Positions 1 to 4,202 of a DNA stretch of 64,000 nucleotides are shown here, piece by piece. This DNA comes from Candidatus Saccharimonadota bacterium (GTDB lineage: Bacteria > Patescibacteriota > Saccharimonadia > Saccharimonadales > Saccharimonadaceae). Position 1 is the stretch's first letter. Every line of letters begins with the position of its first letter. Under the pieces are notes generated by a model, which did not search any database, was not told the origin of the DNA, and saw nothing but the letters and a program-made list of their open reading frames with translations. The position numbers and the translations under genes are program-made. The stretch lies in the NCBI GenBank assembly GCA_017460625.1, contig JAFUAT010000003.1, positions 222 to 64,221 of the forward strand, given 5' to 3'.

Positions 1-129
1 CATGTACTACTACTCCGGTAGCTTATATTCCGGCAGCTACGACTATCGGGGCCTCGGGTACTCGGTACGGTGTATCCGTACTAGCTAGTAGGCATTTCTT
101 GCTTGCTCTGAGAGCTCCGGCTCTCTCCG
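1..129 (+). repeat. DGR variable repeat (VR) plus IMH region
   Basis: Aligns without gaps to the reverse complement of 2346-2474 with 12 mismatches: 11 at TR adenines and one G(TR)/A(VR). Confidence 0.95.
2..88 (+). CDS. 3' end of DGR target protein (C-type lectin-like, FISUMP/major-paralogous-domain style C-terminus), partial
   Basis: Frame 2 reads MYYYSGSLYSGSYDYRGLGYSVRCIRTS* (TAG 86-88, second TAG 89-91). The GxSVRC ending is typical of DGR CLec targets. Confidence 0.88.
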   Translation: MYYYSGSLYSGSYDYRGLGYSVRCIRTS

Positions 130-149
130 TTCCTCCACCCGAGCAAAAA

Positions 150-171
150 GCCGCGGCTCGTAAGCCGCGGC
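150..171. promoter_or_regulatory. GC-rich hairpin downstream of VR (DGR cis-acting stem-loop; could also be a minus-strand terminator)
   Basis: gccgcggct-cgta-agccgcggc, a 9-bp perfect stem flanked by A-runs, absent from the TR copy. Confidence 0.7.
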
Positions 172-202
172 GAAAAACCATTTAAATTTTGAAGATATTA
201 CT

Positions 203-1159
203 ATGACAGATAATGATAAAAATATACCAAAAAATCTAAGTAAGAGTGCTGTACGAGACGCAGTTAATGAAAAACGTATTTCGCGGGGGCGTGGTCGGAC
301 AGATGCTGAAAAGAAAGCAAACTATAGTGCTTATGAAAAACGAAAGAAACTTGTCTTTGAGATAGAGAAGAAGAATAAGCAGTATTTAGTACTGTTTCTT
401 GCGTCGGATGGGAAACTTGATGAGAATGGCCGTGGTGGTATTTTTGACGACAAGAACTACTATATTATGGGCGGCAATTCGGCAGTGGTGTATGTTTCTG
501 AAATTGGACCACGGATTGGTAGAACACCAGTACTTAAACCTGATACGGATAATTCTCAAGTTAAATTTAGGACTGGTCTTGCGGGTATCAAGGGGCTAAA
601 TAAGTTTACGGCAGCGCTTAAGGGTATTAATATCGAGCGTGTAGAAACAAAAAGTGGAGATGAGATAGCGTATTTCAAACTACCACAAGAGTTTACTAAG
701 GACGAAATTGATACAATGATGAAGCAACAGAAAGTAACACGCGACGAAGCTAATGCGTTAGTTTATTCTAGGGTACTTCATCCGAGTTTACATAAACCGA
801 TAATCGAATTAAGAACATTGTTGATTCATAAAATTAAGAATACGGTTCCTGAATACCGTGTAGCACTGGGAAACGAAATTGTTGGGTTGGTGTTGGAGCT
901 AAAGGACGAATATATTATGATGGTACGTGAAGCTATGAATGAGCGTGAGTTGCTTCTCAAAATGCAGATTACGGTGGATAAAATTTGCGATAGAATTGGG
1001 ATGATGATGGATTTGCAACTTTGGGATGTATTGTTTTGTATCAGGGCGGGAAGTCAAGCGGCGAGAATACAACGAGAGATTAGTGCATTGATTAATAAAT
1101 ATGATGCGACATTAAAAAAGAAAGAGAAAGAAAAGAATGAAGCTAACTGCAAAAAATGA
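203..1159 (+). CDS. avd: DGR accessory protein: C-terminal Avd-like four-helix bundle with an N-terminal MutS-domain-I-like region
   Basis: Lies between VR and RT. aa ~194-300 follow the Avd pattern (PEYRVALGNEI...LLLKMQITVDKI...LQLWD...IQREISALI); aa ~58-150 resemble MutS domain I (YLVLF..YYIMGGNSA..LAGIKGLNKFTAAL). Confidence 0.72.
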   Translation: MTDNDKNIPKNLSKSAVRDAVNEKRISRGRGRTDAEKKANYSAYEKRKKLVFEIEKKNKQYLVLFLASDGKLDENGRGGIFDDKNYYIMGGNSAVVYVSEIGPRIGRTPVLKPDTDNSQVKFRTGLAGIKGLNKFTAALKGINIERVETKSGDEIAYFKLPQEFTKDEIDTMMKQQKVTRDEANALVYSRVLHPSLHKPIIELRTLLIHKIKNTVPEYRVALGNEIVGLVLELKDEYIMMVREAMNERELLLKMQITVDKICDRIGMMMDLQLWDVLFCIRAGSQAARIQREISALINKYDATLKKKEKEKNEANCKK

Positions 1160-2303
1160 AGATAGTGATGATAAAAAATGGTTGGAGAATTATTGGCACA
1201 GGTTGATGTATGAGTTATACATCTCATATCTTTATGCTAGACGTGGTGGAAAGAGGGGGACCTTTGATGAGCATAAATTTGAAGTTTTTGATTTTATTCA
1301 TCTATATAGTTTGATGGAAGCCATTAAAGATAAAAAATATTATCCGTCGAGGGGGACGGCACATATTATTTTTAACCCGGTAATCAGAGAGATTTTTGCG
1401 GCGGCTTTTAGGGATAGGGTGGTGCATCACTGGATATATATGTTGATATATGATTGGTGGGATAAACAATTTATCTTTGATTCTTATTCCTGTAGAGAGG
1501 GGAAAGGGACTTCTCTTGGGGTGTTAAGGTTGCAAGAGCAGATTGTGGAAGCTCAAAAGGAGTATAATGAACGGGTGTGGGTAATAAAACTAGATATTAG
1601 GGGGTATTTTATGAGTATTAATCGACAACTTTTGTACAAGCGGGCGGTTTGGGGATTAAACCAGCAGTTCAAGGGCTGCTATGGAATAACATATGAGTTA
1701 GCGAAGTTTTGTTTACATGAAATAATATTTGATGATCCGGTGAAAGGGGCGAAGAAGAAAGGATGGCCACAGGACTGGCGGGAACTACCAAGGACGAAAA
1801 GTCTGATTTTTCAGTTACCAGGTATAGGGATAGTGATTGGAAACTTGACCTCGCAACTTCTTTCCAATATTTATTTGGATCAACTTGATAAGTATGTAAC
1901 ACGGTCGTTGGGATGGAAATACTACGGAAGGTATGTGGATGATTTTTATTTTATTGTGCCGGAAAGTATGAAAAAGAAAGCGATTGATGATATTGCTGCT
2001 ATCGAGAGATTTTTGAAGCGGTTAGGATTGACGCTTCATCCAGATAAAAGAAGTGTTCAGCCAGCGGAAAGGGGGACGGCGTTTCTTGGGGCGGTGATAT
2101 ATCCTACGGTAATTCATCCAGGCAAAAGACTGAAGAAAAACGCGAGAAAGGCGTTTCGTGATTTTGCGAATGGGGAGGGTTCCATTGAGACGGTGGTGTC
2201 TTATATTGGGCACATGAAATACATGAAACATCATAAGTTTTTGTCATCTTTATGTGAAGAAGTGGGTTTACCGAAAAGTTTTTGGATGCAATATGAAAAA
2301 TGA
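1137..2303 (+). CDS. DGR reverse transcriptase
   Basis: FRDRVVHH, SYSCREGKG, KLDIRGYFMSI, IGNLTSQLLSNIYLDQLD (DGR-type GxxxSQ), RYVDD, LHPDK; no maturase or endonuclease domain. Confidence 0.96.
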   Translation: MKLTAKNEDSDDKKWLENYWHRLMYELYISYLYARRGGKRGTFDEHKFEVFDFIHLYSLMEAIKDKKYYPSRGTAHIIFNPVIREIFAAAFRDRVVHHWIYMLIYDWWDKQFIFDSYSCREGKGTSLGVLRLQEQIVEAQKEYNERVWVIKLDIRGYFMSINRQLLYKRAVWGLNQQFKGCYGITYELAKFCLHEIIFDDPVKGAKKKGWPQDWRELPRTKSLIFQLPGIGIVIGNLTSQLLSNIYLDQLDKYVTRSLGWKYYGRYVDDFYFIVPESMKKKAIDDIAAIERFLKRLGLTLHPDKRSVQPAERGTAFLGAVIYPTVIHPGKRLKKNARKAFRDFANGEGSIETVVSYIGHMKYMKHHKFLSSLCEEVGLPKSFWMQYEK

Positions 2304-2304
2304 T

Positions 2305-2333
2305 AAAGGGTAGGTTTTGCCTACCCTTTCTTT
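2305..2333. terminator. Probable bidirectional intrinsic terminator between the RT mRNA and the antisense TR RNA
   Basis: aaagggtagg-ttttg-cctacccttt, a 10-bp stem with T-rich tails in both directions. Confidence 0.7.
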
Positions 2334-2345
2334 AAAGGTGGAATG

Positions 2346-2580
2346 CGGAGAGAGCCGGAGCTCTCAGAGCAAGCAAGAAATGCCTACTAGCTAGCACGGA
2401 TACACCGTACCGAGTTCCCGTTGTTCCGATTGTTGTTGTTGCCGGAATATAAGCTACCGGAGTTGTAGTTCATGTTGTAACGATTCGTACTATTGTTTGC
2501 GGTAGAAGACCACCAGTTCCCGTTCGAGCCGACATTGTTCGGCGAGCCATTGTTGTAGTTCCCACTATAGACGGGGGAGA
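2346..2580 (-). repeat. DGR template repeat (TR), inverted relative to VR and RT; its upstream boundary cannot be fixed in this window
   Basis: Minus strand reads PVYSGNYNNGSPNNVGSNGNWWSSTANNSTNRYNMNYNSGSLYSGNNNNRNNGNSVRCIRAS* with 20 AAC/AAT codons; 2346-2474 matches the VR. Confidence 0.94.
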
Positions 2581-2889
2581 AAGCAGAAACAAGCTTATTT
2601 CTACTTTAACGTGCTGGGAGGAAGCACAACTACGAAATTATGAGGCTATGAAACTGTAATGATAGCAGAATATAACTTGGACTACATACAAAACAGCTAA
2701 CAATCTACAACAGGCAAGGAACAACTTGCAGAATATCTGTAATTGCCATTTGTGAAATGGGTGTTCCTGACCTCCACCTTTTTTGCAGTTTTTTGGCAAG
2801 ATTGGCTATGCCAGTGTCTTCCTTGAAACTGGGGCTTTGCCCTATGATGTATATTATAAATCGGATTACTGGTTAGTTGGAGTGCGGAT

Positions 2890-2969
2890 TGACTAATTTA
2901 AAGTCTGGGCCTGACTTTTTTAAAGCTGAGAGCTGACTTTTTTAAAGTCTTGGCTTGACTAATTTAAAG
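2890..2969 (+). repeat. Four iteron-like direct repeats TGACT(AAT/TTT)TTAAAG with an exact 22-bp period
   Basis: Copies start at 2890, 2912, 2934 and 2956; each is partly palindromic (GACT..AGTC). Confidence 0.9.
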
Positions 2970-2983
2970 TGCTAGAGTATAAT
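2955..2983 (+). promoter_or_regulatory. Sigma70-type promoter of the ATPase gene
   Basis: TTGACT (2955-2960), 17 bp, TATAAT (2978-2983); ATG 7 nt further on. Confidence 0.8.
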
Positions 2984-2990
2984 ATGGGAT

Positions 2991-4202
2991 ATGTACAAGA
3001 GAGAAATAGAACAGAGAATTAGGCAAATTTCAGATACCTTTAAGGTGCTAGTGGTTACTGGGCCACGGCAGGTTGGCAAGACTACGTTGCTTGAATCAAT
3101 GATGCCAAAAAATATGACAAAAATTTCTTTGGACGATGAGACGCTTCGCACTGAAGCTAAAGAAAATCCGCAGTTCTTTTTGAATACCTATAAGGCCCCG
3201 CTTTTTATAGACGAAGTGCAATATGCGCCGGAGCTTTTACCTTATATCAAAATGCGAGTGGACGCATCTAATGAAAAAAGTCAATATTGGCTTTCGGGCT
3301 CGCAAGCTTTTAATTTGATGGAAGGGGTTAGTGAATCGCTTGCTGGAAGAGCTGGCATTGTAGAGATGAATAGTTTTACATATCGGGAGCTGTCGCGACT
3401 CTTGGACAAAACTGCGGTTTTTGATCCATCACAAATAAAAGAATCATCGCCGATTCTTACTGATGAAGTTTTTGAACGTATTTTTGTCGGTGGAATGCCT
3501 GAATTATATAATACCCCGGAAATATCGCGGAATGATTTCTTTGACTCGTATATAAATACATATATTCAGCGGGATGTACGCCAGGTTAAAAATGTAGGGA
3601 GTCTGGAAGATTTTCGTCGATTTATGAAGGACATTGCTCTTCGTAATGGTAAGCCACTCAATTATTCTGATATAGCCGCGGAGATTGGCGTTTCTTCTGT
3701 GACGATTAAAACCTGGGTTTCTATACTGATTACTTCAGGTATTATCGTTTTGCTGGAGCCTTTTTATACGAAGAAATTAAAACGTTTGACGCATATGCCG
3801 GAAATTATCTTTATGGATTCCGGATTGGCTTGTTTTCTTGCTGGTTTTGAAACGGTGTTTGGGCTACAATCTAGTGAATATGCCGGGAGTTTTCTTGAAG
3901 CTTATGTAATATCGGAGCTAGTTAAGGGATACCGGAATAATGGGTTACAAACGAATTTTACTTATATTCGGAATAAAGAGACTGAAGAAATAGATTTACT
4001 CATTGAAAGAGACCTTGTTTTGTATCCTTTTGAGATTAAAAAGACATCCAACCCTAAGCCTGAGATGTTGAAGAATTTTCAGATGCTTGATAATGTTGAT
4101 TCAAAGGTTGGTGTTGGCGGGTTGATTTGTCTTTATGACAAAATGATGCCGCTTGGTGAAAAGAAATTTGTAATACCTATTTCTAGTGTTATTGCTGGGT
4201 GA
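2991..4202 (+). CDS. AAA+ ATPase with DUF4143-type C-terminus (COG1373-like; wHTH plus PD-(D/E)xK-like tail)
   Basis: GPRQVGKTT Walker A, FIDEVQ Walker B, LSGSQ, SLAGR, FMDSGLA, EIDLLIE..PFEIK. Confidence 0.88.
   Translation: MYKREIEQRIRQISDTFKVLVVTGPRQVGKTTLLESMMPKNMTKISLDDETLRTEAKENPQFFLNTYKAPLFIDEVQYAPELLPYIKMRVDASNEKSQYWLSGSQAFNLMEGVSESLAGRAGIVEMNSFTYRELSRLLDKTAVFDPSQIKESSPILTDEVFERIFVGGMPELYNTPEISRNDFFDSYINTYIQRDVRQVKNVGSLEDFRRFMKDIALRNGKPLNYSDIAAEIGVSSVTIKTWVSILITSGIIVLLEPFYTKKLKRLTHMPEIIFMDSGLACFLAGFETVFGLQSSEYAGSFLEAYVISELVKGYRNNGLQTNFTYIRNKETEEIDLLIERDLVLYPFEIKKTSNPKPEMLKNFQMLDNVDSKVGVGGLICLYDKMMPLGEKKFVIPISSVIAG

Follow-up and report, generated by a model that had tools for sequence, protein, structure and literature searches.

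The 64,000-nt stretch analysed here (the window) starts at base 222 of contig JAFUAT010000003.1 (hereafter C14; assembly GCA_017460625.1) of a Candidatus Saccharimonadota bacterium, whose genome comprises 0.71 Mb in 14 contigs, and it opens with a diversity-generating retroelement (DGR). In all probability the element resides on the chromosome, has recently been active, belongs to a lineage typical for animal-associated Saccharibacteria and varies surface proteins. Its identity as a DGR, proposed in an earlier note made from the sequence alone, is supported by a reverse transcriptase (RT) of the DGR type, by a template repeat (TR) and a variable repeat (VR) at a gene 3' end that differ specifically at adenines, by the AAY-rich, non-coding nature of the TR and by an accessory protein with the Avd fold; a GC hairpin, a candidate counterpart of the cruciform in Bordetella phage BPP-1, also follows the VR. 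To our knowledge, DGRs are the only natural systems for targeted protein hypermutation in prokaryotes, and they are common in bacteria of the candidate phyla radiation (CPR). The element is an ordinary member of this well-known system, in the layout usual for its lineage, namely with a backward-facing template and an enlarged helper protein.

Realignment of window 1-129 (plus strand) with the reverse complement of 2346-2474 gave the gapless match between VR and TR described in the earlier note, with 12 mismatches. Eleven of these lie at TR adenines, which account for 31 of the 129 template bases (hypergeometric P=3e-7), and the single exception to the conservation of non-A positions is a change from G in the TR to A in the VR at window 80. 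All nine template AAY codons in this overlap are altered in the VR, yielding exactly the residues that had been read before (Y,Y,S,Y,D,Y,G,L,Y). However, the window edge truncates this repeat: window 1..129 (plus strand) is the 3' part of a VR that spans C14:106-350 and begins 116 nt left of the window. The TR occupies window 2346..2590 on the minus strand, that is, opposite to the RT gene and the adjacent VR. Over the full pair of 245 nt, 19 of the 20 mismatches fall on TR adenines (P=5e-12). Extension of the sequence to the left, as suggested earlier, thus recovered the complete VR, but not the complete target gene, inside which the contig breaks.

We assign window 1-129 to the VR and 2346-2474 to the TR because the former is in frame up to a stop codon, whereas the latter lies outside any long open reading frame (ORF). 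The VR frame forms the end of the target gene (window 2-88, plus strand; …GYSVRCIRTS) and stays open up to a TAG at 86-88, which is followed by a second TAG at 89-91, giving a double stop TAG TAG at 86-91. For the TR copy, stop codons upstream close the frame; 20 of its 67 codons are AAY (15 AAC and 5 AAT). Identity between TR and VR continues for 41 nt beyond the stop (window 89-129, plus strand), and the divergence that follows marks the 3' boundary of the repeat. This segment includes the hairpin GAGAGC-UCCG-GCUCUC (window 110..125, plus strand), which is present in both VR and TR (TR copy 2350-2365, minus strand) and is paired in the RNA fold. A GC-rich inverted repeat with a 9-bp stem (8 GC) and a 4-nt loop follows 21 nt past the identity (window 150..171), at the position that the cruciform downstream of the initiation of mutagenic homing (IMH) site has in BPP-1. 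It is unique to the VR on C14, being absent from the TR flank as well as from the VRs on contigs C9 and C5.

The RT, an intact protein of 388 aa, is encoded at window 1137..2303 (plus strand) and was recognized by Pfam RVT_1, by PHROG 1423 (E=8e-67) and by its motifs. FRDR (aa 91-94), GxxxSQ (as IGNLTSQ, aa 234-240) and YVDD (aa 266-269), previously judged intact, are indeed all present and are invariant in an alignment with relatives (10 aligned). IGxxxSQ in motif 4 together with YxDD places the enzyme in the DGR clade of RTs. When all solved structures were compared, BPP-1 bRT was the closest (8ub7_A, E=7e-25), and the next-best matches, i.e. retron and group II RTs, reached E values of 5e-6 or worse.

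The same TR matches three more VR copies on other contigs, namely C9:106-350, where all 20 mismatches lie at TR adenines, C5:24140-24342 at the end of a FISUMP gene (23 of 25) and C7:83114-83296 (26 of 37). For the VRs on C14, C9 and C5 the adenine bias has P values of 5e-12 to 6e-14. Over a common stretch of 368 nt, C14 and C9 differ at 17 positions, of which 16 are TR adenines, and the 123 nt of this stretch that lie outside the repeat are identical; past this shared part, C14 continues into the accessory and RT genes and C9 into a sigma-70 gene. Both contigs begin exactly 141 nt before the first variable site, which is the signature of an assembly-graph branch at k=141, and it is because of this branch at the VR that the adjacent target gene is cut. 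A complete version of the sigma-70-adjacent paralogue was retrieved from another assembly, where it lies between uvrD and the sigma-70 gene. The encoded protein of 666 aa carries a hydrophobic anchor at its N-terminus, followed by S/T-rich repeats (Flg_new_2) and, at the C-terminus, by a Fib_succ_major/FISUMP domain whose end is formed by the VR. The C5 paralogue likewise has Pfam and NCBIfam matches to Fib_succ_major/FISUMP. The earlier expectation of a surface-protein target is supported, with a FISUMP/Fib_succ_major domain behind a membrane anchor as the family concerned.

The copy on C7 is an orphan VR (C7:83114-83381; locus L007, 4097-4385, minus strand) situated between a ComEC-like gene and dnaK. 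Here, 63 nt of the target N-terminal region are joined straight to the VR, and the copy has neither a start codon nor the 3' identity (homing) region. It probably represents a dead, internally deleted target.

Whether the VR varies specifically at template adenines, a check proposed in the earlier note for metagenomic reads, was addressed with other public assemblies: we used public contigs that encode exactly the same RT or exactly the same sigma-70 protein, and the comparison is therefore one between assemblies, not reads. At the DGR-adjacent locus, assembly ERZ28019087 (L112) differs at 17 of 3300 positions, all of them in the VR and 16 at TR adenines, and ERZ27256836 (L114) differs only at window 80, where it has the G of the template. 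At the paralogous sigma-70 locus, ERZ28019087 (L117) differs at 26 of 2900 positions, again all in the VR and 24 of them at TR adenines (P=1e-14); in two more assemblies (L116, L118) the VR is the same as in this genome. For L112 and L117 combined, 40 of 43 VR differences fall on TR adenines. The flanks (~2650-3050 nt per locus) show 0-1 substitutions between assemblies, the TR is identical in every assembly compared (three others), and the RT and the accessory protein are identical and open. Change that is confined to the VR and to adenines, beside near-invariant flanks, is the product expected of a working DGR and points to recent activity.

Several observations weigh against this interpretation. 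The variation is seen between assemblies and not within a population. The VR at the DGR-adjacent locus in L112 is a C9-type allele, indicating that gene conversion between paralogues or phasing by the assembler contributes. The VR allele of L117 has a stop codon from a non-A change. The DGR-adjacent target gene is cut by the contig start, and the word intact therefore applies to the other parts of the element. Finally, transcription of the TR as a separate unit, the ends of this unit and its long-range helix, all described below, are predictions only, and the ~17 nt between the TR and the hairpin behind it offer no obvious counterpart to the long priming segment, Sp, of BPP-1. This premature stop in L117 (ERZ28019087:k141_557073) is a TAT codon close to the VR 5' end that has become TAG through a change at a template T. 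The allele also has a C>A change, and both are thus non-adenine changes in a freshly rewritten VR.

A fossil DGR, with intact-looking parts that have ceased to function and with old differences between VR and TR, appears very unlikely. Such an interpretation could draw on the fact that the evidence comes from assemblies, on the internally deleted orphan VR on C7 with its at least five non-A changes, and on the stop codon in the L117 allele. However, the 17-26 VR differences, nearly all at TR adenines, stand beside flanks with 0-1 substitutions, and old differences would bring divergence of the flanks as well. Every assembly compared also has the same RT, accessory gene and TR, with open frames for the two genes, which argues against a decayed element. 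We give just as little credence to the idea that gene conversion or recombination among paralogous VR cassettes, once built by the DGR, makes most of the present differences. The C9-type allele at the other locus in L112 and the presence of four VR copies for this TR in the genome would fit, but the L117 and C14 alleles match no other copy in the genome, and in all alleles the departures from the invariant TR are nearly confined to A, a bias that would not come from shuffling alone. Moreover, since contigs of k-141 assemblies stop exactly 141 nt short of the first variable site, a phasing error is a simpler source of the shared allele. A DGR that has worked recently thus remains the preferred explanation for the VR differences.

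The chromosome-like Saccharibacterium setting that had been assumed holds: the relatives are named Ca. Saccharibacteria or Ca. Nanosyncoccus, and the flanks carry housekeeping genes (TyrRS, RNase H). These flanks also bear on a further alternative, in which the DGR would sit on a prophage or another mobile element and diversify a phage receptor-binding protein. The match of the RT to a phage RT family (PHROG 1423) and the many DGRs that are phage-borne speak for it. However, besides tyrS, RNase H and other housekeeping genes in the flanks, the paralogous target is flanked by uvrD and the sigma-70 gene, phage structural genes did not turn up and the targets are membrane-anchored cellular FISUMP proteins, which together leave a phage origin with hardly any probability. 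We therefore continue to treat the element as a cellular, chromosomal DGR.

The same 0.71-Mb genome harbours a second, complete DGR of the same layout (C3:1-2730; locus L010). Its RT (C3:1209-2459) is 45% identical to the first and is accompanied by an accessory protein of 304 aa. The TR (C3:2477-2714) is on the opposite strand, and there are two VRs: at C3:116-353, A accounts for 19 of 21 mismatches, and at C2:15278-15515 for 14 of 16. Identity between the two TRs of the genome is 64%, and neither matches the VRs of the other. In total, the genome contains two DGRs and six VR copies.

Between VR and RT lies the accessory gene (window 203..1159, plus strand), which encodes 318 aa and overlaps the start of the RT gene by 23 nt. 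Searches of this ORF against Pfam and NCBIfam gave no match, and PHROGs returned only marginal hits at chance level (E 0.008, 0.075). An AlphaFold (AF2) model built from 29 homologues reached a predicted local distance difference test score (pLDDT) of 89.5. In this model, the C-terminal part (aa ~194-317) is a four-helix bundle with the Avd fold (Foldseek against 4dwl and 8ub7: TMt 0.82-0.87, root-mean-square deviation 1.8-2.0 Å, prob 1.00), and by this modelled fold only, the protein is an Avd-type accessory. The N-terminal alpha/beta domain (aa ~34-192), modelled alone with pLDDT 91, had no fold match in the Protein Data Bank (PDB) or in BFVD when searched with Foldseek. The accessory gene is kept upstream of the RT in 29 loci, and an ORF of ~250-380 aa directly precedes the RT in nearly all examined loci of the Saccharibacteria RT clade introduced below. 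In public data, the N-domain family comprises 516 protein clusters at 50% identity, and nearly all of its members are 245-430 aa long; therefore, fusion to the Avd bundle is their normal form. The family of ~500 clusters is without a Pfam model.

An extra accessory module of similar size alongside Avd is also known from DGRs of architecture D, for example in Legionella, where it is a MutS-like (MSL) protein; MSL proteins span 112-283 aa (Wu et al., PMC5758913). Here, in contrast, the extra module is fused to Avd and no similarity to MutS itself was shown. There was no Pfam MutS_I match at E<=1 in 29 members, MutS was absent from the top 50 Foldseek hits in the PDB (all prob <0.25), BFVD was unsupportive and a profile search against PDB sequences gave no support. 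An hhalign comparison with the N-terminus of Escherichia coli MutS yielded a probability of 2%. An identity of the N-domain as MutS domain I, or as a MutS-like domain, is accordingly not supported.

As to the layout, VR, accessory gene and RT gene follow each other on the plus strand, and the TR comes after the RT stop at 2303, on the minus strand. TR and RT gene converge, and the adjacent VR has the opposite orientation to the TR; this is not the BPP-1-type order, in which target, avd, TR and RT are on one strand with the TR between avd and RT. The search for relatives covered GTDB species genomes as well as whole genomes from the same family. A first scan of the genome contigs with a single RT as query returned nothing, and a second one with an RT alignment as query produced 80 loci. 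A TR/VR pair was found within the fetched stretch in 52 of the 80 loci, and 27 of those 52 have a TR that lies downstream of the RT gene and on the strand opposite to it; the VR usually precedes the RT on the RT strand. The layout was seen in 9 further loci from the genome search. All 27 inverted-TR loci belong to one supported RT clade (99/97) of 55 rows, the members of which are nearly all named Candidatus Saccharibacteria or Ca. Nanosyncoccus; many are metagenome-assembled genomes (MAGs) from goat, sheep and deer gut. The neighbouring RT clade consists mostly of Bacteroidota, together with Ignavibacteriota, Fibrobacter and single MAGs labelled Moraniibacteriota and Pseudomonadales, and mostly has the canonical order VR-TR-RT. 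The inverted TR is thus a known variation of the DGR layout, which is typical here for a lineage, i.e. a Saccharibacteria RT clade.

Five contigs labelled Clostridiales, Deltaproteobacteria or 'bacterium' (L085, L074, L041, L059, L077) fall within or beside this clade and probably are Saccharibacteria contigs that were mis-binned or left unlabelled. The convergent TR is also seen in L041 and L085; L074 has no resolved position at the clade base and no TR/VR pair was found in its case. Genomes of the same family (L026, L027, L028, L030, L024) additionally contain more distant DGR RTs with an ordinary Avd of ~120 aa (MARYEHL… type). The TR was found upstream of the RT in three of these distant loci (L026-L028), which hold canonical avd-TR-RT cassettes with a 120-aa Avd. 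Since such RTs occur in the same family, two DGR lineages coexist in Saccharibacteria.

RT and TR on different strands are on record, as 'inverted DGRs' (Schillinger et al. 2012, PMC3521204) and in Wu et al. (2017/2018, PMC5758913), and they imply separate transcription there as here; both papers name this possibility and show examples of it. In the inverted DGRs of Schillinger et al., however, TR, VR and target together oppose the RT, whereas here only the TR is inverted, so that the TR and the adjacent VR are opposed. Furthermore, the published opposite-strand DGRs are a rarity, and in Saccharibacteria an entire RT clade has this layout as its rule. With the architecture B3, TR-(avd)-RT, of CPR/Patescibacteria (Wu et al., PMC5758913; clade 2 of Roux et al., bioRxiv 10.1101/2020.04.01.020958), the element shares the host group, the chromosomal location, the very small genome and the diversification of surface proteins. 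It deviates from B3 in order and orientation, and in having an accessory gene of ~300 aa on the RT strand rather than an inverted avd of ~120 aa.

Downstream of the RT, the minus strand has features of a stand-alone transcription unit for the TR. A TATAAT that may serve as -10 box of a promoter for a TR RNA is located at window 2853..2858 (minus strand), 268 nt upstream of the TR, and of 28 loci that share the layout, 23 have an exact TATAAT located 180-400 nt ahead of the TR. The putative leader (window 2591..2846, minus strand; ~255 nt) is ORF-free: on the TR strand, this region has no ORF of at least 60 aa, and only ORFs of 53 aa (2638-2799) and 40 aa (2470-2592) overlap it. A 10-bp hairpin (window 2305..2329) separates the convergent RT gene and TR unit; it begins 17 nt past the end of the TR/VR identity. 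With the T-run that comes after it on the minus strand, it is likely the terminator of the TR RNA.

Folding of window 2846-2296 (minus strand, 551 nt) gave -174.7 kcal/mol (z=-6.2 as compared to shuffles). The minimum free energy and centroid folds both contain a predicted helix AAAGGUGGAG:UUCCACCUUU, which encloses the whole template. Its 5' strand AAAGGUGGAG is in the leader (window 2781-2772, minus strand) and its 3' strand UUCCACCUUU (window 2334..2343, minus strand) begins 2 nt past the end of the TR/VR identity. The TR leaders of 28 loci, aligned with MAFFT, are too divergent for covariation counts. In an alignment-free duplex test on the 28 loci, pairing of a leader with its own tail was stronger than pairing with the tails of other loci (means of -19.3 vs -15.4 kcal/mol; Mann-Whitney P=4e-7), and the own leader ranked among the top 3 of 28 for 14 tails, with pairing sequences that vary between loci. 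Helix searches at single loci were not significant against shuffles when taken alone. A search of window 1-3100 against Rfam gave just two sub-threshold chance matches, and inspection by eye of the region 3' of the TR across loci revealed no conserved structure besides a CCACC-like motif and, in some loci, a hairpin.

This CCACC-containing motif (CUCCACCU, UUCCACCU) recurs a few nt past the TR end in the closest relatives (L013, L033, L034, L016, L043, L044). It is also found in the VR flank (ttcctccaccc, window 130-140), and at window 2334-2343 it coincides with the 3' strand of the predicted long-range helix.

Following these predictions, the TR would be transcribed alone from the minus strand, from the -10 box at 2858-2853 through the ~255-nt leader and the 245-nt TR to the terminator hairpin at 2329-2305, resulting in an RNA of ~540 nt. 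A helix between the leader and 10 nt just past the TR would close the template into a loop. RT and accessory protein would copy the TR to complementary DNA (cDNA) with random bases opposite A, and this cDNA would replace the VR, with the shared 3' segment (identity to 41 nt past the stop) guiding homing. One TR may in this way serve at least two near-identical paralogous targets (C14, C9) and a third one on C5. As all targets are membrane-anchored FISUMP proteins, the cell would vary the ligand-binding ends within a small surface-protein family.

Comparison with the DGR of BPP-1 (mtd-avd-TR-brt) reveals many shared traits: bRT is the closest solved relative of the RT, the accessory protein has an Avd-fold bundle, and A-to-N changes occur at AAY codons. 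In both systems the VR is located at the 3' end of the target, TR/VR identity extends past the variable part and a GC hairpin comes after the VR, here as a candidate counterpart at the VR on C14 only. The pairing predicted here between the leader and the segment just past the TR is similar to the 'cPRT Stop' duplex (avd:Sp) in the RNA of BPP-1, a type of duplex that its authors predicted in 207 DGRs (bioRxiv 10.1101/2023.10.23.563531). Differences concern the TR, which here is a separate unit on the opposite strand after VR, accessory gene and RT gene, and its surroundings, with ~17 nt from the TR to the terminator hairpin as compared to the 140-nt Sp, and a leader of ~255 nt instead. In addition, the accessory protein has an extra N-terminal domain of ~160 aa, and the system is cellular and has several targets, with a FISUMP target domain rather than Mtd.

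One might speculate that the ~255-nt leader ahead of the TR has taken over the elements that Sp provides in BPP-1 (primer strand, stop duplex and stem-loops that bind protein), that the leader folds onto the 3' boundary of the template and that the lineage-specific N-domain fused to Avd partners this rearranged RNA. We consider this scenario rather doubtful. If true, it would amount to a circularly permuted DGR ribonucleoprotein with a free-standing template-RNA gene for dispersed targets.

The element adds no new principle to what is known of DGRs. It does provide a clean and compact natural example, with alleles that differ between otherwise identical strains, and is useful for studying the variation of surface adhesins in an epibiotic Saccharibacterium. 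Furthermore, it documents an antisense-placed, putatively stand-alone template RNA gene and a two-domain Avd fusion as the norm in one large clade of Saccharibacteria, and offers DGR biochemists a natural variant with which to ask which RNA and protein elements are really required. Of specialist interest are the putative stand-alone template-RNA unit with its long leader predicted to clamp the template, the unclassified domain fused to Avd and the density of such systems in 0.71 Mb.

Beyond the putative promoter of the TR RNA, short direct repeats (…tgactaatttaaagt… / …tgacttttttaaag…) with a spacing of ~22 nt are present at window 2885-2975, between this promoter and a promoter-like site, TTGACT-17-TATAAT at 2955-2983, of an ATPase gene. 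The latter gene, encoding an AAA_14 and DUF4143 protein, comes next to the TR unit, on its far side from the RT, at both DGRs of the genome (window 2991-4202; L010 3839-5128). We considered the ATPase as a component of the DGR, but it is near only 6 of ~100 related loci; it probably is no such component and may be a recurrent neighbour.

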